Positions 7,410 to 42,166 of a stretch of 64,000 nt of DNA are shown piece after piece. This stretch comes from Botryllus schlosseri (taxonomy: Eukaryota): positions 436,001 through 500,000 of the forward strand of contig CM119373.1 in assembly GCA_051294905.1 (NCBI GenBank), given 5' to 3'. How positions within the stretch are numbered: position 1 is the first letter of the stretch; each line of letters begins with the position of its first letter. The position numbers were made by a program, and so were the translations under genes. Below the pieces are notes generated by a model that saw nothing but the letters and a program-made list of their open reading frames with translations, was not told where the DNA came from and made no database searches.

Positions 7410-8404
7410 TTACTTATCTCCTGAATTGTTTACATCATGACAGTCTACATTATGAGAGATGATCGTCCCATGGTTCTCAGTGCCGGTCGTGCGATGCAAA
7501 TGCACATCTCCGCTGACATTGATATTTCTTGTCGAAGTTCCACGGTAGCTCGATTCACTTTGTCCCGAAGTTGACGGATCTGTGACGTCAGGTCGCCAGA
7601 GGTATTTGATACCGTGATTATGCCATCTCGTATTATCTTTAAAGACCTGAAAACTCAATGTGACCTTTCTCGGCTCCATCTCGCTTTCTACCGTGGAGTA
7701 GGATATAAAACTCCCTTGACCCTGGATGACATGGTCCACTGTATGCTCAACCTCGGTCGGAGTAAAAGTGAGTTTATACTGCTCTGAGAATAGTTTACTT
7801 TTTATTGAAGTGGAAGATTTGCAGTAGAAGGTGCTAAAAGAATGAACAGCTACCTCCTTACCAATTTGAGTTTTTATTCTTTCCATACAGGCTTCTTTAG
7901 CTAGTTCATCGTCCAACACTGTGGCAATAGCAAATTGGTCTTTATAGAAACAAACGGTAGGGAATAGGACGTACGATGGAAACAAATAGTTCCACAAAGC
8001 TCCCAATAAATCACTGAAGTGCGTGGTTTGGAATTCAATTTCTCGTGACTGCCCAAGTTGATAGGAGTGGATACTTTTCCAATCTTTCGCATCTTCGTCA
8101 AAATGTAGCACTTCAACAGGTAAGTCTCCCTTATCATCATTGACGCACCATGTCCTCAGTTTAATGGTTGCAGGTACTTTCAAGTCATGCGCTCTGATGT
8201 GTAGAGTGGGCGTGATTCCCACTCTACTGCGAGGCCACGTCTCCGGATTTATGCTAGCTGATGCTGTCACTTGCTGTGTTTGTTCAAAACAGCCCGGTGG
8301 AAATGTGACAGAACATCCACCGATTTTGATTGTTCGACCTTCAGGGCCGACGTATTCTGAAACTTCATTGAAGTGATCTCTTTTACGCACCATATTTTGG
8401 GAAT
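7410..8404 (-). CDS. Large, probably terminal, exon: ZU5 (with HFS motif) + UPA-like domain + low-complexity tail
   Basis: Acceptor ttcctcttttcag|AT (phase 1); VGPEGRTIKIGGCSVTFPPG...ITPTLHI...FQTTHFS is a ZU5 pattern; open for ~330 codons to TAA. Confidence 0.8.
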
Positions 8405-8561
8405 CTGAAAAGAGGAAAGTTTTAAAAAATTTCTGACAGAACATCCACCGATGTTGATTGTTCGACCTGCAGGGCGGACGTATTTTGAAACTTCATTGAA
8501 GTGATCTCTTTTACGCACCATATTTTGGTAATCTGAAAAGAGGAAACTTTTAAAAGTTTTC
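8306..8561. repeat. 128-bp tandem duplication spanning the ZU5 exon splice acceptor
   Basis: 8306-8433 and 8434-8561 are near-identical. Confidence 0.9.
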
Positions 8562-18090: not shown

Positions 18091-19726
18091 TTGAATTTTC
18101 GCAGTATGAGTGATGATGCAAAGTCATTACATTTTGCTAACTGGGTGAAATACAATGAATATAAATTTGAATAAACATGCATAAAGGCGTTGTATTGCCC
18201 ACGCACACGAATTGCTAATATAATACGTGAATACCTGTATACTTACATGCTAGAGTCTGTTATTATCAGCCAAAATAGAGGATCGAATACGAAGCCTCGA
18301 GAAGTTGAAACAAATCGAAATGGTACAATACACTATCCATTAGGGGTAGGCCTACTTAAAAATGACTTTTTTCTCAAATAGTACTGGCTACTTGATAAAT
18401 TGTTAGGTTACCTAATTAAACGCTGCACACCAAATTTGGCCCAATTCCAGCCAGTAGCCGTATTGCTACAGAAGAAAGTTTCTCTTTCATATCTGACGTA
18501 CAGGTAGTGTGTTTTACAAGAAACTTTAAGTTTTTTATATGACGTCAGCTGTCGCAATTCCGAAGATTCAATTAATAATTATCCGTGGAGGCATCAAATT
18601 TTGGTATGACACATTTGAGTGGGGCCATGTCTTGGGATTCATTTAATTACCAACCTTGATGCCGCATATCCTGCAGTCCGTCAAAATATCGGTCAACCAC
18701 CTAAGCATTTTCGGTGGGTTATTGGAGAAAGCAAAGCCTACATTAATAATGCTCATTTGATTGAGATTGGAATGCAGTCAATAATAGTCTATGCGAATGA
18801 TGATCACAGCCTGATGTATCCACCTGATAGAACCGACCTTATAATTACACCCTGGAATAAATTGAACACAATACTTCAATCCAAATGATGCTTGACAAAC
18901 TACAACTAGCACATATAGGGACGTAGAAAGGAAAGGAATTAGACAGGTAGGGTGTATGACGCAAAGTAACCAAAAGAACTAGGGTAGCGATTGAATAAAT
19001 GCAGAGAAAGAAAACGCCGATCGAGGATGATGATTGGCTCAAATTGGGTCTAAATTGAGAAACACAAAGAAGGAAACGCTGCTCATTCGCTAACAAATCT
19101 GGTGAAGTATTCGATCGAGACCCCGTTAACGGGGTTTCTGAATTTTGAGGTATAGGATGTGATTTGATGTACCACATTTACCAGGGTTGTAATGACTCGA
19201 ATGGCGACTTTTTGATTTCGATGATCAACTAAACTCGAGTCAATTTAGGCATTGACTCGACTTGTACGGGAGTCATTGCGCATGACTCGATCAAATCAGA
19301 TACGAGTCGAGACTCGTATGGCCATATAGCAGGCATTTCATTGCAACTTCGACGAAAAATCAAAGTTATTATTACATTATTGGTATTTCGTCTATCAGTA
19401 CTGGTACCTCAGCTATCGCGTCAGAAACTGTTAAGAGTGAGGAAATAAACATGCGATGTATCACCCAAGCAGTGTTGTAATAAGTGGGTTAAACATGACT
19501 TGAACTCTAAACTTAACAGTAAACACAATGACTCGGACTCGATCCTCAGAACGGACTTGGACTCTGACTTGGCTCGGTTGAGAATTTAGGATTACCCGAC
19601 ATTACTCGAATCAAAATGATGAAAGAAAGATTGACTTGCGAGTCGAAACCAGTTGAATTCGCACGTCAGTCATATCACTCATGTCATGCAGATAGTGATA
19701 CCCGCTTCAAAACAAATTTCACTCAC

Positions 19727-20539
19727 CCTGTCCCAAGCAATATTGGAAACAATCTGCCTTTCGCAACGGCTTACCGCCCTCCCGAAGTTCGAACTCGAGT
19801 GTTATGTTCATTTTCGTGCCGTCACTCTCCAACTGACACAGACCGTACGACGGGATCGAATATTTGATGATGTTTTCAATGCCGTGCGAAAAGGATCCGC
19901 TTGCCACGAATTCGAAACCATGGCGAGGTTTCACGCATTTGATACAGCTGTCAATTGTCTGGGTCATCGTGCACGGCAATGGGCAGAAATCCATCGTCTT
20001 GAAATCGGCACCGAGATTATTTTTCATGTCGACCATCAGTTGATTTCTGTCTGGTTCTGAGTGACGGATCAAAGCTACCCCGAAGTCGGAATTTTTAAAA
20101 CAGATTATCGGCCGAACTACATAGGTAACCGTCGACGACTGCTCATCCCTGAGAGTCCCGATGTATTGACCGCCTTCGCGCGACTGAAATTGCAGAGATG
20201 CTGCATTTCTCACTGTGACCGGTGTGATTACCACCCATTTTTTCGTATCGTCGTTGAACTGCATTAGATCAATGCCTACGTTATCGTCTTGAAAAATACA
20301 CCAGGACGGTAACGCCATTGTTGCCTGTTTCTGTAGGTTTTTGGCGTGCAAGAGAAGTGTTGGAGTTATAGCTTCCCTTCCAGCCGGCCACTTCTCCACG
20401 TCAATTTCGACCGTCACCGTAACGGGCTGGGTCCCAGTAAAGGTTCCGGCGGGGAAGTCGACTTTGCATCCTCCAACTTCAATATTTCCCGCTTCCTTGT
20501 CCATAGTAACCGTGCTCGTTTCGCGGGGAACCTTTTTGA
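19727..20539 (-). CDS. ZU5-UPA-like exon (813 nt, phase 1-1)
   Basis: Acceptor aaagcag|TC, donor CAGG|gtgagt; GNIEVGGCKVDFPAG...AITPTLLL aligns along its length with the 7410 exon. Confidence 0.8.
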
Positions 20540-21592
20540 CTGCTTTGACATCGACAGAAAATTGTAATTAAGATTTTGTTGTAATATATAGTCAAGGGAG
20601 GTGCTTATCCAACTTAAGACACAGCAGGAGTGTTAGACGATGACAATTGCCAAGAGCGATCTTCGGGCTCAATCATTACTTGTTAAACAGAGGAAATCAT
20701 CTTGTTTGAAATATAAGATGTCGCACTTGGCAGCATCGTGAACCTGAGCGATTCGATTTTGAGTCGTGTATATTAGGCTTCGAGTCGAGTATCAATAATA
20801 TGATGTTATAAGAGTAGAAAGGATGTGGTAAGTTTTATGCTATCATAAAAACTATAGTGACTCTTCTATATCACATTTAAGCTAATTGTTGCTTTTGTGA
20901 CTATAGGTTTGCATTTAGTTTACAGTGTTTTAAACAAAGGCTTTGTTAAAAAAAAAAATTAGTTATATAAATATGCCACAATTGTGTAAATACTTTCCAA
21001 AAGCATGTTGTATGAGTCTACGGACGACGATTTCCACCTGATATAGTCAACGTATACGATTTGGGATGCTTAGAATAGGGTTGCCATACGTCCGGAATTT
21101 TACGGGCATGTCCGGAATTTCACTGTTCAAACTAGCGTCCGGGAGGAATTTCTAGAATATGCCAAATGTCCGAAATTTTGAAGACTTGACGTAGGCTCAT
21201 ATTTTTTTTCGTAAATCAGCATAAAAACAATATTTTGTGGGAATATTTATGCTAATGCATGATATTTTTCTTCGCGCTACGCGCGATTACTATCACATTT
21301 ATTGATTTTAGTATGGAGACTACCGCCCTCGCAAAACTGCAATAAAATATAAATAAAAACAACCTTCGTTTACTGGAATAAGCCTAATTGTAATCGCACT
21401 TATAGGTGAACGCTATGTTCCTAGAGATCGTTAAGGCCGTTTAAATGCTTTATTCAAAGATAGTGGTTCCATACGGGGGGAGGGGGTCGTTTGCCTTTAT
21501 TATGGGGTTTGCGAATATGTTGAACGTAATCAGCTTCCAAAATAGTCCGTGAGTAAGTCTGGGCAAAGGTGCTGACTTCTTTTAGTAATCAG

Positions 21593-29220: not shown

Positions 29221-29433
29221 TGTAACGGTGTCGCTACTAGTTCTTTATACTCTTCAAGTGTAAATCAGTTCACAGCCAGACAGATACCGTAACAGTTATA
29301 TTCACGACAGTAGAAAGCGTGTACCACCCATACACAGACACAAAACAGAATATTCCAGAAGGTTGCGGTTATCTCCCGCGAACGCATTGTCTCCAGGGGT
29401 GACGTCATTGGCCATAGATGGCGCCCCGTCACA
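29221..29433 (-). repeat. 3' LTR
   Basis: 2 mismatches seen against the 5' LTR; preceded on the minus strand by polypurine tract GGAGGGGGGTATA (29434-29446). Confidence 0.95.
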
Positions 29434-29600
29434 TATACCCCCCTCCAAATTTTTTCGAATGGTACATGAGAAAATATCTACCTCAAAGCAAAAAGCAACG
29501 ACACACAAAAAATAATACGGCATAAAAGCCCAAAAAGGAACGAACATACAAAGGGTTAGGACAACTGATTGTGAAAATCAACGACAATGATGAAAATATG

Positions 29601-32600
29601 TCATGTTATGTAGTCTTGCAGACGACCAGGTCTGTTGATCTGTCGGCCAGCACGAGTGGTGGTTGGCGTCGTATCGTCAGCAGCAGGATCTGATGTAGAG
29701 GGCGATGATTCCCGCGTCTCCAGCAGATAAGGTCTGATATAATCAGCATGCGAAAGTCTGCACTGCCCATTGTCCAAGTTCTCGATTCGGTACAGGTATG
29801 GCGATTTCACTTCAATGACCTTGAATGGTCCAACCCACCCATTGGACAACTTCTTCACCAAGGGTTTATAGAAGAACCAGACTAAATCGCCGACACAGTA
29901 TGTGGCTGGTTTAACAGAGAGGTTAAAGTTGCGCTCCTGTTTCTCAGCAGATCTCGATAGCTGCTGTCTTGCAAACGTAAAGGCATCAGATGTTGTTGAT
30001 TCGACCCATTGTACATATTCATGATAATACTCGAACGACAGTTCGTTAGATGGTTTTCCAAACATCAAGTCTGTGGGAAGGGAAATTTCTCTCCCAAACA
30101 TGAGTCGGTTGGGCGTGTACCCTGTACTCTCATGAACAGTGGATTTGTATGCCATCAACAGATAAGGGATGTAGTCCTCCCAATCATTGCGATTTCCATT
30201 CCCCACAAACGTTTTTATCATTTTTTGCAAAGTCCCATTAAATTTCTCGACCAGACCATCACTACGTGGATGGTAAGATGTTGTTCGAGTCTTGTCAATT
30301 TCGAACAATTTCATGAGATGACGAAACAGCTCAGATTCAAATGCGGATCCACGATCAGAATGAATGGTGAATGGAACACCATATCTCGTGAAAAATTGAT
30401 TGACCAGCGCCTCCGCAGTAGTTACGGCTTTAACATCTTTGACAGGGTATGCTTCCACAAATTTACTAAAATAGTCCGTAACACATAATATAAACTCATT
30501 TCCGTTCTCAGACAATGGTAATGGTCCAATGTGATCAATGCCCGCTCTATCCATGATTTCCGCACATGGCATTTTTCGCAAGTAGGCTTGATGTTGTCGT
30601 AATGGCGTTTTTGCAGCAAAGCACGGTTTACATAATCTGGTCCAATCAGCAATTTGTCGATGCATGTTAGGCCAGTAAAATCTTGACTGAATTTTTTTGT
30701 AAGTTTTCTCCTTGCCAAGATGGCCGCCTGTTCTCGATTCATGGAGTAACCGGTAGACATCCTTACGCAAGCTCGATGGCATCACAATTTGAAAGAGCTC
30801 AACATTGCCCGGTATTTGTGACAAAAATTCTCGGTGCAAGACGTCATCCAAAACTCTCAAGACATCCCATTGCATACATAGGGTGCGGACATCCCTTGGA
30901 TATGGTAAAAGTTCAGTGCCTTTAGGAGCATGATCTCTAGTCTCGTTCCAGTTCAGCACGACCGATATGCACTCATCCTCCATCTGCAGCTCTCTAAGTT
31001 GACTTGGACTATATGATTCCAGCCAGGAGCACATTCTTTCATCAGTTCCGCTCTCAGGAGCTGGTTGAATAGCAGTCACTTCCAATCCGGGTAGGAAACA
31101 GGTTGGTTCAATGTCCGGCTTGTCGCCGCATGTAGCACAGCAATCCCTTTCACATTTACGTCTGATGCGGGAAAGTCCATCTGCGTTGCCATGCTTTGCC
31201 CCCGCTCTATGTTCAATTTTGAAGTTGAACATAGGCTATCTAACATGCTGACCCATCTCGCCGTAATGCCTTCTAGGTTCCGGAAGTTATACAACCACTG
31301 TAAAGAACTGTGATCCACTCTCAGTCGGAATGGCCTTCCCCACAAATAAGACCTGAAATGATTCACGGCCCACTGTACAGCATATAATTCCTGGAAGGTG
31401 GCACAATATCGTCTCTGTTGCTTGTTTAGCGTCTTGCTGGCATATGCAATCACCTTTTCTTCATTTTCCTGTACTTGGGAGAGGACTGCTCCTGCACCAA
31501 AGCCAGAGCAATCAGTATCGAGAACAAACTCTCCTGCAGTCTCAAGCGGATAAGCCAATATTGGTGTACTTGTTAATTTTTGTTTCAGAGACCGGAATGC
31601 CACCTGGCAATCATCGGACCATTCAAAGGTAGCCTTCTTCCGAGTGAGTTTCACCAATGGCTCTGCAATGGTTGAAAACTGGTCAATAAATCTTCGATAA
31701 TAGTTTGCCGTGCCGAGGAATGCTTGAACGTCCTTGAGATTTTTCGGCACTGGCCAATCCTTCACAGCAGAAACTTTGTCATCACTGCACTTGAGACCAT
31801 CTGGGCAAATCACATGTCCCAGGTACTCTACCTCCTGGTAAAACAGTTTGCATTTTTTAGGCTTAAGCTTAAGACCAGCGTCACGAATTCGCTTGAAAAC
31901 ATCTTCCAGATTGCAGAGTGTTTGGTCAAAGTTCTCCCCATACGCCAAAATGTCGTCCATGAAGGCAAGGCATTTCTTCCACAAGAGTCCATCAAGTAAC
32001 TTCTCCATCATTGCCATGAACGTGGCAGGCGCATTACACAAGCCAAAGCAAAGGACTGTCCATCGAAATTGCGAATGCAGTTTTGTCTCGGTCACTTGGA
32101 TTCAGGGGAACTTGCCAAAAACCGGATTCAAGATCCAGAGAACAATACCATTTTGCCCCACCCAGAGAATCCAGGATATCGTCAATGCGGGGCAGAGGAT
32201 GGGCATCCTTTACCGTGATTGTATTCAATTTCCGGAAGTCGGTGCAGAAACGGTACGTGTTATCCCGCTTTGGAACCAGAACAATCGGCGCGTTGTACGG
32301 GCTTTGGGCCTTCTCGATAACGCCCAGTTTTTCCATCTTTTCAATCTGCTCACCCACAATTTCTCGTGCCCTCCAACTCAAACGTCGCGGAGGCACTTTA
32401 ACTGGTACGGTAGAAGATAGCTCAATTTTGTGCTCAATCAAAGTGGTATATCCCAATTTTCCATCAGGCCCCGTGAATATATCCTGATACTTGATGAGAA
32501 GATCTCTTAACTGTTGTCGCTGTTGTACATTCAAGTGGTCTGGTTCTTCTACGGGGTGTCGGAGATGGTCCGGCAGATCCAAGCACGGTTCAACTTCCAC

Positions 32601-33233
32601 GGTGTCAGGCGCCGCCACAGACCCACAAATCGTAAGGGGCACTAAAGAGCCTACTCGTTCCCCAGCGGGGATTACAATATCATTTTGAGATAGGTTTATC
32701 AACATCACAGGCACCTCATTACATGTAGGATCGACCAAACCGGACAACACACGCAAACCACGATTACCATACTGGCTCTCAAACACAGGCGAAGATTCAA
32801 CCACACCACATTGTGAAATTGACGGCAACCAAGGCCCACTCACTGCACCCATGACAGCTCTTTCACTCCACTTAGGAACTATTATCTGTTTCGGAGTTAT
32901 AACACCACAACAGGACACCGACACCTGTTGCAATATAACATTTTGGCCATGCAAACTCATCATTCCTTTACCCATGTACAGAACAGCATCATGCTTCTCC
33001 ATAGAATCACACCCTAGCAAGCCATATGGCGCACCCAGACGAGCAATCACAACCTCTTGTTGTGCACAAAAATCACCAATACGTAGGGTCAACACCACTG
33101 TGCCATATAGCTCCAAGGGGCCACCAGAAGCAGTAACAAATGGGATATCACATGGTTTCAAATCAGTTATATCATACAGTCGAGTGTACAAATCATAGTC
33201 TAGGAAGGTACGGGGACTGCCTGAGTCTACCAT
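29601..33233 (-). pseudogene. pol: pol (PR-RT-RNaseH-IN) with two frameshifts
   Basis: VDSGS protease; LDLESGFWQ, FGLCNAPATF, FMDD (RT); DTDCS, DHSSL (RNase H); HHCC, D,D35E and GPF (IN); frame breaks near 32070 and 31235. Confidence 0.92.
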
Positions 33234-34365
33234 CTCTATTTCTATTGGGGCACGAAACTAGAAGGTGACCCAACTGGCCACAGTTAGCACAATGGGAGTT
33301 TGGGCAATTTCTGTGAATGTGTCCAGTCATTCCACAGTTATGACAAGGTCCATACCCAAACGTTACTCTTCTTCGATAGGGAGGGCTTCTAGGCCTACTC
33401 ATCGGTGGTTGATTTCTGGCAGTCACTAGGTTGCTAACCAGGTCAATCAGCTTGTCAATTTTTGATTCCATCTCATTATCACACTTGCCTACTGCAAGAC
33501 GTTCAGCGCCATTTTTTGGTTGTAGACCTACAGGAGCCACAACTGGTTTACTAGTTTCGAACAATTGACTGTCAGGCGGTCCATCAACAGAGAAATACAA
33601 ATCCGCAGAAGCAACTAGTTCATCTAGGTTACTTGTTTTCATCAACGTTAGCTGTCGGCGAAGGTTAATATCACCAAGACCATTAATAAACTGTTGACAC
33701 ACAAACTCATCACGAGCTGCAGAATTCATACGTGGAAAAGCCTTCAAGCTAAGCGTAGCCAGAACTGATGCGAATTCTGTTGGGGATTCTCCTAATTTAA
33801 TTTTACGTTTGTTAAATTCAGTACGGCTCAAGGTTTCCATACCCCATGGAATGTAGCGCTTCTGCAATTGGGCAATTACACGATTAATATCCCGACGGCA
33901 ATCAGCCGACATTTGTGAAAGCACTTGCAAAGCGTTACCACGTAAGCTAGCATTAAGCCTAGCACAAGCAGTTTGTTCGTCCCATCCGTTGGCCAATGTC
34001 ACCGCATCAAAATGACATAAATAATCACCAATGGGCATATTCACACCATCAAATGGTTCCAGTTTAATAACACCAACAGCAGGTTTGGGCATGCTATGAC
34101 TAGATGGAGTGGGGTGTACAGAATTGCTACCAGTAACACGCACTTTATCATTTACATACTGTAGTTCTGGAGACATCACACCAGTTTTACTGTCAGTCAT
34201 ATCAACAAACTCCCCCATGTCACCATTATCATTACTGTCAAACACACATCCACTCGTATTCGGGGCTGCAGACATACTCTCACCTCCCAAACTTTGTACA
34301 ATGGTTAATACACGACTGAGGGTACTGTTTTGGGCATCCACCATATCGTCGATCCGGCGATGGAC
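33193..34365 (-). pseudogene. gag: gag main body with two CCHC knuckles, interrupted at the 5' end
   Basis: LEPFDG..IGDYLCHFDAVTLANGW; CHNCGMTGHIHRNC and CANCGQLGHLLVSC. Confidence 0.9.
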
Positions 34366-36368
34366 CAGTGATGAGCGGATGTGGATTTTTGAGAATCCGA
34401 ATCCGTCCGACAGTTTTTGTGTCTGCGGAACTATCCGTCCGACTCCGAAGAATCTCATCCAACTATCCGACTTTATCCGAAAATCTCGTACAAGAATCCG
34501 AAAAATCCTTATCGAATAATGATATCGCAGAATATCAATTGTACAGCTGAGCTTAGATACAGTTCTGCACTAAAAGACCACGAATTGTATATATGGAATG
34601 AACAAAAACAAACAGAACAAAAATTGGAATTTTAATTATAGGAACGTTAACGCGAAGAAACAACGCTACTAATTTCAAGTAAGTGCGCAAATAAAAGTGG
34701 TATCTCGGATCAAAAAAAATTAAAAAGGACAGATTATTAGGCCATGGCCATTGGCCGTGTATAACAATCAGGCATTTAACCATATTACCCAATATCAAGA
34801 AGTGATAATAGCAAGTTGTAACCGTGGAATTTTACAATCTCAGATGGTCAATATTGGATGCAGATAATCCGCATTTTGCCCACAAATGCTAAAATATGTG
34901 AAGGCCTGTTCAGTAGAAACTTGCTGATGCTTATAATACCTTTGGTCAATCAGTTCAAAGTTTTGAGCACGATGCTTATAGTTGAGTCACACAAAATGTA
35001 AATAATAGCACCATCCTGAATGTCCCTCAATAGCTGTTCAAATTTCCTCTCCAGTGACCAATAGCAGGTCAGTAGTTGTCTTGCCGACTTGTATATTAGA
35101 AGAGAAGAAACTATCTCCAACTGTGCTGCATCCTTGGCCTTTCGGATATGATTTGTAAGGTGCATCGGACCACTTGAAAAGTTGTTGTGTTTGACTTGAA
35201 CATATAGCAGAGGCAGTATCCCATGAACAGACCATTGGTTGAAAAAAAAACTAACAGCTTTTGTTTATATAGCTCAGTGGTTCTAGATGATTGATTCCGT
35301 CAATCATATTGGAGAAAATATAGCTGCTGAAGGAAGGGAAGTGTATGCGGGAGTTGAATAGGTTTGGGTTTCGTTGTAACAGTATATAGGAATTCTGGAT
35401 TTCATAGCCTTGTTATATGTTATTAGTTAACCTTAGTAAGGTATGCATGTATCTTGAATGATTTCAAAGAGGACGATAGGCTACTGTATAGTCGAGGCAT
35501 CGTTATAATTATCATAGCCTACATTTTATCTGTGTACATATCTTTTTATATAACTTTCTATATAATTTTCTGACTGCTGAAAGTTACTTGTATATGTTTG
35601 TATGCATATTCCTATTTGATTGGTCGGGCTACAAGTGTGTGGGTACGGTAGCTGCTAACTCGACGTGCCAAGCTGACGCAAAGTCCAAGTTCACACTGGG
35701 AATACCTTCTCACAAAATGAAGTTATTACATTGTTGAACGTCATCTGGATTAATTCCGTTATGATCATGAACTGCCGGAAGACTCATGGTAGATAAAGAT
35801 GGTGCCATAGCACAAGCACCGATGTATAGTGCTGAATACAACTACTGTGGTAGCATAAAAATCAGTCATGCAACAAAGTACGCAAAGAGGGATATATCTT
35901 ATATTTATCTACATAAGACTGCTGCAACAACTACTTTGAGGATTCTGGAGATTGTATGCCCTATTATGACATTCGTCAGCAATGGGTTCAAAAACTGCAT
36001 GTCAAGGTGGAAAGCAAATGCAGTTCTGCGACCGATGTTGAAACAAAACCTTCAATTTTGTGAGCTTCAGAAACTGCTCTGCGAGAATACTGTACTGACG
36101 ATAACTATGTCAGGAGAGCTCATGTCTAATCATAGCAATTTACAGCGTAGCTGGCATGGAGAGTTCCATCTGAATACGATCGATGTTGTGGTTAACAGCG
36201 ACACCTATCGCTAACGTAATACTTTTTCGTCGTCACCCGCCAGAACAGAGATGTAAACAGTAGCCGTAGTAACTAGTAACGCTAACTTTCTATACCTGTG
36301 GAACTGTGGATTCTGTGTACTTATATCCAGTTATAGTTGGACGTTGGTACTACAACATAGTCCCAACT

Positions 36369-39300
36369 ATGAGCTCCAATGCCAAACTTTATAAAAGCAG
36401 AGGCGGAACGTACTGCTGTATTCCTGAATGCACAAGCTCAAGTACAAAAGGCGGGTTCAGCCTGTACAAAATCCCTACTAGTTCTGGAAAGCAGTTTGGA
36501 GTGAGCACAAAGCAATGGGCGGAGGAGCTTCACCAGGTAAGATATCTATAGTAAAGAAATGTTATGAAAATGGCATCCCCATAATGTTGGATAATATAGC
36601 TCTTACAAAGAACACTGAATCGCGGGATTTTGACAGAAATATCCCAACTTGTGTCAGTCTCAAAATTTTGATTTTACAGGTAATCTTCAGATATCGATAT
36701 GATGCAAATTTCAACATAAAGGTGAAATCAGGAAAAGCATATATATGCTCAAGACACTTCCAAGATTGCGATATTCAGCATTCAAGTTGCCGCTCTTTTC
36801 TTAAGATGGGAGTGCTTCCAATTTTAAATTTACCAATGAAATCTCATCCCTCCAAAATTCCCGAAAAAAGACGACTCATTCAAAAAGTTTGTGACAAAAC
36901 AACCAAGGAAAAAAGGACATCAATTTCAACAATCGATGGCATTTTGGATTCCTGGAGAACACTTCAACTAAATGGTTGGCGTTGCTTTCAAGCTTCTGAT
37001 TACTTGCTTCACCTAAGCTATTACGAAAATCCCTTCCTGCATTCGACCCCTGACGTTAGTCTCCTCGTCACAGAGAAGGACGAATGTCTTCAATTATCTG
37101 TTGCATTTGCTGGGGAGTATGCAATGCAATTATCAACCGAATTAGAATTTGGGACTAAAAGTTTAGAGGATATGCTGCAGTTTCTTCAAACAATGAAAGT
37201 CTGTGAAGGCTATGAATCTGTTCCCAACAATGGAGGTTGGATTGAAAAGAAAGTTCCTCATATGCGTGAGGGTAGATTGGGTTATACCAGAAGGTAAGCA
37301 ATGTTTTCTGCCACAGTTTAGCCCAATCCACAACATTTGCATTCTAGATTTTTCAGTGATGATTGCCAAGTCGCCTATTATAGGAAATCGTTGGTATGCC
37401 AAACATGTATGATGCACCATGTGGAGTGCATTAACAGTTTGCAGCGCAGATTGGAACGCAAAGAACGAACTGAAGATCTTCCCTTAGAGAAGACAGCTCC
37501 TTTATCAAAGTGCACTAAAGAGAGGCTGAAATGTACTGTTAGCTCACATCGCACGAGGTATTCATTCTTACAAATATCAGCATAAATTAGCAAATGCTAT
37601 GTTTGAAACTACCCTATGTAATCTTAGAATCCGTCAGTTAGAAAAAGAGTCGAAGGATCATGGTGTTACAGTATCACACGCTTTTGAGAATTTAATAGCC
37701 AAAGTATCAGATGAGGATAATCTACTTCGTGACTGGTGGACATGTCAAAAACGGTTACATGAGACTAAGAGCATCCATGGGAGACGTTATGCTCCTTCTG
37801 TAATAAGGTAGGAACATCACCCAGTATTATGTATCAGGGGAGTGAACTATATTTCGTAAATTTGCTACAGATATTGCTTGAAACTTTATGCGAAGTCTCC
37901 ATCTGCCTACCGGCTAACTCAGAACATTATGATCCTACCCAGTGCTCGTACGCTTCGCAACGAAAGGGTTAAAGCAGTTAACAGGTGCAGCATTGGAGTA
38001 CAGTCAGGTGTTACCAAAAGGATTCGTAACGCAGTCAAAGCTACAGAAAATTATCATGAACAGTTTGCTGTGGTTTGCATTGACGAAATGACCATAAAAG
38101 GCAGGATAGTTTTGGTGTATTCATGTATAGAAGGGAATTTATTCTAATTTTATCTCTATAGAGGATCTTGTGTTTCAGTCAAGAAATGGAAAAGTTATTG
38201 GTTTTGTAGATTATGACAGTGATGATCTTAATTGCTTGTCTTCATCATCATCCAAGGTTGCGACTCACATGCTCGCTGTTTATATCCGAGGTAAAGTGCT
38301 CCTAAAACTTTTACAATTCTTTTACTATCTCGTTCTTATTTAACACAGGAGTTACAAATAAAAAACTGGACGGTGTAGTTGCATTCTACCCAACGAGCGG
38401 TGCTTCGTCAGAAGATCTATTCATGGTCCTTTGCCATTTGCTAGTGGAAATTCCTTATCAAACGGGTGTAACCATTGTTGGTGTAGTGTGTAAGATTTAT
38501 AATTGATATCATGTCATAGTTACTTTAACATGTACATGTACATGCTGGTCATCTACAAACGCCATAAATTATGCAATTCGTAGCTTTTTTCACAACTGCA
38601 CTATTTCAGTTGATGGTCTTGCGGCAAATCGTGCAGTATTGAAGTTGCTGTGCAACGTTGAGGAAAATGGAGAAACAGTATAGGATGACGAACCCAGTGG
38701 AACCTACACGGTGAGAGCCGTGTGTTCAATGTCATAATTGACAGAGAGTTGTTGATAATAATACATTATTTTTCAGGTTCATTTACTTTGTTCCAGATCC
38801 TCCACATCTTTTAAAAACGGCACGAAACAATTTACTTAATCCCAAGAAATGCATGTGGAACAATGGACACATTACAATGCAGCCAATCAAAGATTTAGTG
38901 AGGGTAGACTAGTGCATTATAATATTTTGTAGGATATGTTTATCCTATATGTTCATGCAGAAGGATATTGCGCGTGGCGACTTGAGATTTTACCCACAGC
39001 TGACAGAATCGCATATATCACCAACTCCGTGGGAGAAAATGAATGTTCGTCTAGCTGCGCAAACTCTTTCCTTCACATTAGGTAACTATAATATGACTTT
39101 TATGAAACATAACAAATTCAATGTTATAATCTGAGGAGCACGCTGTGAATTAACTGATCATTCTGAGCACCAAGATTGAATACATCAGAAATTTTGCTAT
39201 TTCCTATAGGCTTATGGTGGAACTGTACCCAATTTCTTTTAGGTTCTGCATTGAGTGAGGCATCACCTGCATTGTCGAAGTTTCTCTTTACTATGGACAA

Positions 39301-39721
39301 GTGGTTTGATTCAATGAATGCTGGATTCCAAGGATCCAAATTCAAACCACAGCGCCGGCCATATTATTCAGTTAACGATGACCGTTTGATTTGGCTTGAA
39401 CAAGAATTCCTAACTTACCTAAATGATTGGCGGGTTCAGGCTGAAACAAGACCCCTAATGGGTGATGTGAATCGATCCTTAATGATGCTGAGCACTGCGA
39501 CTGAACAAGGTTTACAAACTGCCACTAAATCCATGATTGCCATTGTAAGAGAGTGTTTGAGGATGGGGGCTGATTATGTACTGCCCCGCAGAGTCAACCA
39601 AGACCCGCTCGAATCTTATTTCGGTCATCAGAGACAGCAATGTGCACGAACAGACGCACCTTCTGTGGCACTATTTAGTGCCAATGCCCGATCAGCTGAG
39701 GTGTTGCGTGGGGCTTATTGA
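36369..39721 (+). CDS. THAP + P-type DDE transposase, 11 predicted exons, ~830 aa, one +1 frameshift in exon 8
   Basis: Exons 36369-36536, 36680-37293, 37348-37557, 37628-37807, 37871-38100, 38162-38290, 38349-38489, 38610-38710, 38777-38903, 38961-39081, 39243-39721; THAP CCIPEC..W..CSRHF; IDEM, FDG, DPPH, KMNVRLAAQ, QDPLE motifs; AATAAA at 39739. Confidence 0.88.
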
Positions 39722-39826
39722 TTTGAGTTCAAGTTTACAATAAATTCAACAGAGAAGAAATTGTTATTTTATTGTAAAGAGAGTTACGAGATGTCGAAAC
39801 AGGCACTTGAAACTTATTAATGAAAT

Positions 39827-40920
39827 TCATTCTTTGAGCTTTTTTCGTATAGCTGCAGATCGCCTTTTATTTAATTTGGCCTGATTGTGTGCAGCTAATA
39901 AATGTTTGAAGTGCATGTGTGCGCGTGCACGCACAAATCTTCTGATGAGTAATATCAGCACATCATTCCACGTCACATTGCTGGAAGTACTTAACGCATT
40001 GATGACTGCTTGCTCGTCCATGGATTTACTATTAATTTGTTTGCGGACTTCCACTTCTGCCGCAATCACAATTGTCATAAATGCATCACTGGGCACGATC
40101 AAAAATCCACGGTTCACTTTTTCATATTCCGGGCAAAGGGAACCAGATTGAGATATCTGCGAAGATACCCACTTTGCATCTTCACCGGAGAACTTCTTAA
40201 GTCCCCACTTTAACAGCGCTCCGGATATATACTGCAACACCTTTCTGTCATCGTCCGTAAGTGTCGAGTTGTTTGAAGCAGATCTCTGCCCCATTGGTGT
40301 TCGTAAACGTATTACTTGGGGAATGACTGCAGTCAGCATTCTCTTGATATCAATTTCCGTAGGGTCATGGTCGTGTACGGAATAAGTTTTGCGTAACAGC
40401 TCAGAATAAATTTTGAGCATATTCTGTTTCGTCCCGCGGATTTTAAAAATGTCACCAGTCATAGTTTCCCGGAGACCACTCGATATTTCCAGTTTTGACT
40501 CTGCTATGGCCTGTTCTATGATGTCTTTTACTAGTGGAAGAAGTTCATCGGTACCAGAACCAAATAATATTTCCACGCAGAACGGTCCCGGACTTTCGAT
40601 CAATTCCCCCGGAACAGAAATTTCATCATCCATCTGATAAATATAATATCAAGGTCAATGGAATTTCAATTGATAAAGCCTGCAACTGTAACTTATTCAC
40701 ATCGTATAGGCCAAGGACGGTGTTTGATTTGAAAGACACTTTCCTATATTTAAATTGTTACAGTATCGCGTGCTTTGAAATGTAAATTAGTAAATGAGCT
40801 CAACAAGTTTTCAAAATGATCACAAAACTGCTAATAGCCGCACTGCAGCAAGGGAATGAGATGATATGGGATACTCACGTCGTCAAAAATCTCCAGCAAT
40901 TCAGCTTCGCTCAAATCCAT
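39827..40920 (-). CDS. Second P-element gene, 282 aa, 2 exons (40879-40920, 39827-40633), resembling the P-transposase C-terminal domain
   Basis: MDLSEAELLEIFDD|gtgagt...tatcag|MDDEI, phase 0, uninterrupted; LQYISGALLK...VNRGFLIVPS...RFVRARAH; minus-strand AATAAA at ~39768-39773. Confidence 0.8.
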
Positions 40921-41827
40921 CTTCAACAATTCACTTACTAGCTTCTGTAAGGACAGTTATGAAAATAAATGATAAATTCCATTGATTTTAAATGAATAAT
41001 CATTTTAATGCTGCTGCAATACAACGCGACTTGTCTCCGCTCACGCGCTCAGTGGCGTCACAGTCATACGAAGATTGTCGGCGATTGTCTGTCGGCACCC
41101 CATTGTGTGAAACAATGACGATTTCTGACTTCGACGTCGATTTTGGGTGGGTTTCAGTTCCCGGGCCGGATTTCAACTTATATATTTAGAATCAGTGCGA
41201 AATCTGCTTTTGATTGATACCAGTTTTATTCACTTTTGCGCTCTGGTCCCATCTGTATGTTTACCGAGAAACACACTACAGCAGGTTGAAAAGCAGCATC
41301 TGTTATCTCACCACTGGGGGCAGTGCGAAACACAACATCGCATACCGAGTTTCCATGCCAGCTACGCTGTAAATTGCTATGGTCTAATCATACCACCTTT
41401 TATCAGTTCACATATTATATATCGATAGACTGGCAAGTATGGTATACTTGATGTATTTTAGCAAATAAATGTGATAACATGGCTGACATTACAGTATTGT
41501 CTATTCTTGAATGGTAAGAATGGTATTGGCGATAGTTTATTTGTATTTTCTTGGACTCTTGACTGACATTTTTAGACTGCTACCATTCATATCGCAAGGT
41601 GTCAGCTGTCTGTAATTGGTTATTGAATCGATGACTTCTTTCTATGGGCCTGTAATCAAATCTCACATCTGGTTACAACTATCCGGAAATATCCGTATGA
41701 GAAGTTACAGCTATCCGACAATATCCGGAAAAAAATCAGCGCCAACATCCGAATCCTATCCGACTGCCAAAAAATTGTCTAATATCCGGTCCGAATGCTA
41801 TCCGAGTCCGTCCGATGCTCATCACTG

Positions 41828-41886
41828 CGATGGACCCGCTCCAACTCTGCTCGCAGATACTCATTCTCGTCACGCAATGAATCCAT
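41828..41886 (-). pseudogene. gag: Displaced gag N-terminus
   Basis: MDSLRDENEYLRAELER joins in frame to VHRRIDD when the insert and one TSD are removed (407-aa Gag). Confidence 0.88.
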
Positions 41887-41935
41887 ACCGATACCGGTAT
41901 TCTTGTTGCACTGATCGCTGGTTGTTAACTTGAAG

Positions 41936-41951
41936 ACTGGTGTGCTCGCCA
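41936..41951 (-). promoter_or_regulatory. Primer binding site, tRNA-Arg-like
   Basis: TGGCGAGCacaCCAG begins 2 nt after the 5' LTR; partial complement of the tRNA-Arg(ACG) 3' end. Confidence 0.65.
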
Positions 41952-41953
41952 AT

Positions 41954-42166
41954 TGTAACGGTGTCGCTACTAGTTCTTTATACTCTTCAAGTGTAAATCA
42001 GTTCACAGCCAGACAGATACCGTAACAGTTATATTCACGACAGTAGAAAGCGTGTACCACCCATACACAGACACAAAACAGAATATTCCAGAAGGCTGCG
42101 GTTATCTCCCGCGAACGCATTGTCTCCAGGGGTAACGTCATTGGCCATAGATGGCGCCCCGTCACA
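41954..42166 (-). repeat. 5' LTR
   Basis: 213 bp, TG...CA, direct repeat of 29221-29433. Confidence 0.95.

Follow-up and report, generated by a model that had tools for sequence, protein, structure and literature searches.

The flagged gene, hereafter the partner, encodes a protein of 282 aa (849-bp CDS, minus strand) and lies within a 5,251-bp DNA transposon of the P superfamily (36131–41381) in the window, i.e. the 64,000-nt stretch of Botryllus schlosseri DNA analyzed here. P-superfamily elements have terminal inverted repeats (TIRs) that begin with CA and target-site duplications (TSDs) of 7–8 bp; at this locus the TIR starts with CA and the TSD measures 7 bp, a length that was also seen in related families. 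Between the TIRs, the partner faces a P-type transposase gene that ends without the C-terminal domain (CTD) of this enzyme class (Table 1).

Table 1. Features of the P-superfamily element and its two genes, in window positions.
Feature	Position	Strand	Remarks
TSD, left copy	36124..36130	+	GTCTAAT, 7 bp; direct repeat; empty site seen in reads/contigs
TIR, left	36131..36160	+	30 bp, begins CATAG; 100% complementary to right TIR
P-type transposase gene without CTD	36369..39721	+	11 predicted exons; 833 aa in intact twin; broken in window copy
Transposase exons 1–6 (predicted)	36369–36536, 36680–37293, 37348–37557, 37628–37807, 37871–38100, 38162–38290	+	
Transposase exons 7–11 (predicted)	38349–38489, 38610–38710, 38777–38903, 38961–39081, 39243–39721	+	
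GC-AG intron directly past first catalytic Asp motif	38101..38161	+	GT donor at equivalent position in the group's other families
2-bp loss, shifts transposase frame	38675..38676	+	by comparison with twin L014; window copy only
Putative third catalytic residue, Glu of QDPLE	39611..39613	+	aligns with 6P5A_A motif (E 0.063)
AATAAA 3′ of transposase stop	39739..39744	+	candidate poly(A) signal
AATAAA 3′ of partner stop	39768..39773	-	candidate poly(A) signal; 3′ UTRs of both genes would overlap
Partner exon 2	39827..40633	-	268 codons + stop (TGA); contig coverage in runs X1 and X2
Basic C-terminal 16 aa	39830..39877	-	end of long terminal helix; homologues keep S..SLR..LK
P-transposase CTD-homologous segment	39878..40267	-	exon-2 residues 123–252 = fly 617–734; Z 11.3 (see text)
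Extra N-terminal four-helix domain	40301..40552	-	exon-2 residues 28–111; pLDDT 89–96 per block
Partner intron	40634..40878	-	245 bp, GT-AG, phase 0; acceptor ...TTTATCAG
Partner exon 1	40879..40920	-	42 nt, 14 codons, MDLSEAELLEIFDD; acidic amphipathic peptide; 28/33 loci
TIR, right	41352..41381	-	30 bp; perfect inverted repeat of left TIR
TSD, right copy	41382..41388	+	7 bp; matches left copy

An earlier note on this sequence had proposed a 14-codon first exon with strong splice sites, an acidic N-terminus and the absence of a CxxC motif, all of which were borne out. The donor reads GAC/GTGAGT, and 28 of the 33 related loci tested have a 14-codon exon of the same form whose GT donor is in the same phase; as the families compared are just 25–45% identical in exon 2, this recurrence goes beyond chance. 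In the database homologues P0010 and P0022, the exon-1 peptide is joined to exon 2. Contigs of the sequencing runs X1 and X2, which we guess to be RNA, cover partner exon 2 and neither the transposase nor the partner intron; one X1 piece ends at the acceptor (40633) with five letters over, and one X2 piece extends four bases into the intron. The first 30 residues of the protein hold 11 D/E and no K/R, residues 253–282 nine K/R and one D/E, and of its two cysteines one falls in the CTD part, leaving no CxxC. Elsewhere in the genome, the partner intron of the L022 family (L022 and L072) carries a short inverted TIR-like sequence, possibly an internal transposase-binding site.

Reads and contigs joining position 36123 to 41382, as expected of an empty site, occurred in four of the four runs examined; their source may be other copies of the flanking repeat. 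A twin copy on contig C9 (L014) is 99.92% identical to the window element, has a different TSD (ATAAAAT) and is separated from it by three events, namely two substitutions and two bases at 38675 that are present in the twin. The exact TIR matched the genome 57 times (0 matches for the reversed control), and 16 of its pairs have a span of exactly 1,019 bp, with three more at 998–1,014 bp; these near-equal pairs indicate recent mobilization of the element family. A non-autonomous family of ~1,019 bp, whose TIRs are exactly those of the window element, is present at 19 sites in the genome. As to its surroundings, the P element is inserted in a Gypsy-type LTR retrotransposon (29221–42166) with 213-bp LTRs (99% identical), a 4-bp duplication (CTTT) and minus-strand frames for gag, RT, RNase H and integrase (34569–29601), which itself interrupts a single unit of a ~6-kb tandem array. 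Farther away, the window holds two related long frames on the minus strand (7410–8492 and 19719–20567) that, by our assumption, resemble ZU5-domain genes.

With the two additional bases of the twin, the 11-exon model yields an unbroken transposase; its last junction (39081/39243) is present in RNA reads of a related copy, and the remaining junctions are predictions. An exon-wise Pfam scan returned THAP, Tnp_P_element HTH, TNP-like RNaseH_N, GBD and RNaseH_C in this order, each under its cut-off. For the THAP domain, a C-x2-C is found in exon 1 and a PF05485 match on exon 2 (E 0.0017), sub-threshold because an intron interrupts the domain. The RNase H DDE core with its GTP-binding insertion is represented by PF12017, PF21787, PF21788 and PF21789, ordered, on separate exons and each sub-threshold; in the related split family L118, PF21787, PF21788 and PF21789 all exceed their cut-offs. 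The last exon has 6P5A_A as its top PDB match (E 0.063) and reaches its stop 35 aa past the catalytic Glu. Such early termination is general in this group: 28 frames in 27 of the 35 related loci end 23–59 aa past this residue, and one broken copy ends 5 aa past it, whereas four intact single-ORF P elements of the B. schlosseri genome run on for 263–264 aa. Gene 1 hence lacks a fused CTD, and the single polypeptide combining CTD and catalytic domain that typifies P/THAP9 transposases is replaced here by two genes.

The partner had been described as an orphan, a view that did not hold: its C-terminal ~145 aa are homologous to the CTD of P transposases. An AlphaFold model built on a 22-sequence alignment (pLDDT 86) displayed the all-helical CTD fold and, among 48,161 chains, ranked 6P5A_B first, with Z 11.3 (rmsd 2.3 Å over 113 of 118 residues; next Z 7.2), in a range (below ~13) where helical proteins can score through a common arrangement. 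The same chain came first in Foldseek (probability 1.00, TM to target 0.72, E 0.066) and was the better of two matches in a profile search of 177,635 PDB sequences (E 0.2), both E values being non-significant by themselves. Sequence profiles pointed the same way: against the fused CTDs of the B. schlosseri genome, the partner profile gave a best E of 1.8e-8 among 439 frames and HHalign P 94.8 (E 4.8e-8), and in the reverse direction a fused-CTD profile placed the partner first of 789 window ORFs (E 4e-4; next 0.95). Pfam had no match for the partner itself; PF12596 reached E 0.03–0.08 for two partner homologues, and a fused CTD of B. schlosseri also stayed below the cut-off. The structure predicted for the fused CTD was of unusable quality (pLDDT 42), a viral structure library gave 0 matches at E 0.001, and two queries of the ESM Atlas returned no usable match. 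The first ~136 residues of the partner, i.e. the acidic leader and a confidently modeled four-helix bundle, are without a match in fused CTDs or the fly chain, and the four-helix domain obtained middling fold matches (Z ≤ 7.2).

The fly enzyme is described as having a disordered linker before its CTD and a terminal CTD helix directed at target DNA (PMC7776569). It is at the position of this linker that the split between the two genes falls. The basic C-terminus reported earlier is present, and its NLS-like appearance leaves an NLS possible, although not as the main reading: since the tail continues the terminal helix of the CTD, which faces target DNA in the fly, it is better read as what would be the domain's basic, DNA-facing helix.

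Searching the B. schlosseri genome with the partner gave 53 matches, the best ones within TIR-bounded elements. The best 30 of these correspond to 29 loci, of which 19 are convergent with a transposase, seven are tandem (partner upstream of the transposase, same strand) and three are without a transposase match, among them a TIR-bounded derivative of 1,250 bp; a transposase thus adjoins the partner at 26 of the 29. The anticipated tail-to-tail arrangement with truncated P transposases therefore applied to the convergent majority and failed for the tandem loci, and the pair stays linked despite the change in gene order. The partner of the tandem family terminates at a stop of its own, ~500 bp before the transposase start. 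Twelve of the other 23 partner matches were viewed and look like decayed derivatives, and L061 is a non-autonomous copy with the partner gene alone between its TIRs. Five weak genomic matches considered as fused CTDs were rejected as decayed non-autonomous copies. From the transposase side, a partner match was found at 11 of 19 loci and none at the other eight, which look fragmentary; this search also uncovered two additional split lineages at a greater distance, of which one has CAATG ends with duplications of 8 bp. All this departs from a single-copy host gene, with one locus, no TIRs or TSDs and no linkage to a transposase; single-copy host homologues unlinked to transposases were what the earlier note had named as grounds for abandoning its proposal.

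Several features of individual families deserve mention. The tandem family comprises L054–L060 (e.g. G000:C15:1515045-1521296), several copies having TIRs of 90–93 bp. Right next to a tandem-family copy lies another element that has CATAG ends and a 7-bp duplication (L054:7805-9415, L056:8665-9298); in L054, both adjoining elements have an identical duplication sequence, which hints at insertion beside existing ends. The CAATG-ended family (L118, L121–L124, L136; 8-bp duplications) has the bulk of its catalytic core within a single frame of 402 codons, which makes it suitable for structural studies. Finally, L139–L157, L169 and L170 fall into two lineages of P/THAP9-like transposases of the ordinary single-ORF kind, with fused CTDs and many intact frames.

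Beyond B. schlosseri, 27 homologues of the partner were identified among 1.84 billion representatives, none longer than 298 aa. One of them, XP_039271911.2 of Styela clava, is annotated as a host 'uncharacterized protein', exemplifying the misannotation that had been anticipated. Among 208 candidate metagenome contigs, a single one, 4.3 kb long, had a partner-like frame (355 aa); no transposase match was obtained in this contig, which stems from another organism and holds a distant homologue. Neither viral contigs (0 of 60 candidates) nor a word-based protein search with a single partner query (0 of 711) added relatives. The 22-sequence profile found none among the 7,999 scored proteins of 523–2,000 aa, a null result of little weight, because fused relatives were later found directly. 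A precomputed label, PF22824, on the distant homologues P0028 and P0036 was absent from our local Pfam scan and from the literature search. The latter turned up no description of a two-gene P element; Repbase and subscription papers (e.g. a 2009 paper on Ciona P elements) may contain one.

As to selection, the earlier note had invoked the intact partner ORF next to a frameshifted transposase. The frameshift was confirmed, but the argument is void because the twin has an intact transposase; moreover, with three events in total and a chance of 0.59 that all of them miss the 849-bp partner CDS, the lesion is uninformative on selection. Comparisons between subfamilies were more telling: partner dN/dS ranged from 0.05 to 0.37 in nine of nine comparisons, far from the neutral value of 1 and with upper bounds below 0.7 (NG86, which ignores transition bias; dS 0.4–1.1, one comparison near saturation). 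By part, the CTD half is more constrained (0.09–0.15) than the N-terminal half (0.18–0.43), and the transposase exons gave 0.09–0.17 where dS exceeded 0.39 (two of seven comparisons undefined). These rates indicate purifying selection on the partner, and neither outcome that the earlier note had said would refute its element-encoded protein was obtained. Near-identical copies were uninformative (ten comparisons, one undefined; four of the other nine intervals include 1). In trees of 12 transposase/partner pairs, one row of which combines two copies of one family, all five starred branches of the transposase tree recurred in the partner tree, and distances correlated accordingly (Mantel rho 0.82; 0 of 5,000 permutations as high). 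This agreement points to co-divergence of the two genes and thus to co-inheritance, not to physical interaction. An unrooted tree of 15 catalytic cores parted ten split from five fused rows at one branch (support 92/98, not starred), which allows a single origin of the split without demonstrating it.

Homology, complementary truncation, linkage, selection and mobility together lead us to view the element as a cut-and-paste transposon of the P superfamily that divides its transposase between two genes and probably employs a two-subunit enzyme acting in trans. Gene 1 would contribute the THAP DNA-binding, dimerization, HTH, RNase H (DDE) and GTP-binding parts and stop where the fly chain has its disordered linker; gene 2 would contribute the CTD plus the added acidic leader and four-helix domain. 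Both proteins would then come together in one P-type transpososome, in which the DNA contacts of the CTD would be provided in trans by the partner; we infer both its binding and its necessity. Speculatively, the acidic leader and helical bundle could form a docking surface that replaces the lost covalent link or, alternatively, could keep the basic helix covered before transposase binding. The family has been mobile without a fused CTD, as judged from the twin with its other TSD and the 16 TIR pairs of 1,019 bp. Whether these elements are an ancient P-superfamily branch, not previously described, with an obligate two-subunit transposase, whose CTD split off once, gained an N-terminal docking module and a promoter, and was kept and re-ordered, is a broader proposal to which we give about an even chance.

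The main rival reading, a rather unlikely one, is that the freed CTD serves as a regulator or targeting factor instead of an obligatory subunit, so that the short transposase works alone and the partner represses, boosts or steers it. An element-carried regulator would likewise show linkage, congruent trees and low dN/dS, and the coverage of partner exon 2 in runs (putative RNA) lacking transposase coverage agrees with an abundant regulator no less than with a subunit. The acquisition of a conserved acidic leader and a helical domain absent from fused CTDs points in the same direction, as does L061, which retained just the partner gene, and truncated fly P proteins are described as acting as repressors (PMC7776569). 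Against this stand the stronger constraint on the CTD half and the observation that no transposase of the group retained a fused CTD. Joining of the two coding regions at the RNA level, through trans-splicing or read-through, would restore an ordinary one-chain P transposase from parts that are exactly complementary, and the RNA data are too thin to speak against rare joined forms. The opposite strands at 19 of the 29 loci and the CTD-first order at seven rule out cis-splicing, though; besides, every listed transposase frame has a stop at the end of its last exon, the partner begins with a conserved ATG exon of its own, from which homologues are spliced, each gene has a separate AATAAA, and no such junction occurred among the listed reads of four runs, making this explanation very improbable.

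Equally hard to credit is that the split elements are non-autonomous, their two genes mere relics moved by single-ORF P transposases. Intact enzymes of that kind, with fused CTDs, exist here in many copies and could in principle mobilize split-element ends. However, dN/dS of 0.05–0.37 over dS of 0.4–1.1 is unlike relics and largely refutes this idea, and the split transposases form a deep group of their own with catalytic motifs retained. Capture of a host gene by the element, suggested by a homologue annotated as an uncharacterized host protein and by the lack of a Pfam match, was rejected as the least credible of the explanations considered, given the homology to a transposase CTD, the 53 genomic matches, the best of which lie within TIR-bounded elements, and the co-divergence with the transposase.

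If the two-subunit reading is true, these elements would represent a natural DDE transposase divided into separately controlled catalytic and target-capture subunits, and fission, not capture of a foreign gene, would be a way in which a one-gene transposon can turn into one with two genes. The role of the CTD in P transposase is known from one cryo-EM structure (PMC7776569), and a recently mobile family that makes this domain separately would permit a clean test of it. The same reading would account for a class of 'uncharacterized proteins' and seemingly truncated P transposases in invertebrate annotations, and might offer a gene-delivery system requiring two inputs.

Among known systems, the P element of Drosophila melanogaster (6P5A/6PE2; 87-kDa transposase) is one of the closest: its ~30-bp TIRs start with CA as here, its THAP, HTH and RNase H domains with GTP-binding insertion follow the order of gene 1, and its CTD (617–734) superposes on partner residues. 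It differs in encoding one polypeptide instead of two gene products, in having no counterpart in its chain to the ~136 N-terminal residues added to the partner, and in its TSD of 8 bp vs. 7 bp here; the P transposases described in the sources cited here are single chains. THAP9, zebrafish Pdre and the single-ORF THAP9-like elements L139, L141 and L170 have the CTD motifs YI[AS]G ... RG.L..PS in common with the partner. In the single-ORF elements, however, the CTD is fused, the chains of L139 and L141 continuing for 263–264 aa beyond the catalytic Glu, and YIAGY is followed by a CxxC that the separate partner lacks. Transposons with two proteins have been described in other superfamilies, namely Kolobok Kol0 with a THAP-DDE transposase and KolX, a 7-Cys cytoplasmic-ballast fold, between 5′-RR..YY-3′ ends (PMC9587614), RAG-like elements with convergent RAG1L and RAG2L, and PIF/Harbinger with two ORFs (PMC7204232, PMC5543537). 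An identity of the partner with KolX was rejected in view of its two cysteines, its P-CTD fold, the CA..TG ends and the 7-bp TSD. RAG-like and PIF/Harbinger transposons resemble the present element in carrying two element-encoded genes, which in the RAG-like case are convergent as at the window element; their second protein has an unrelated fold, whereas here it is a piece of the P superfamily's own transposase.
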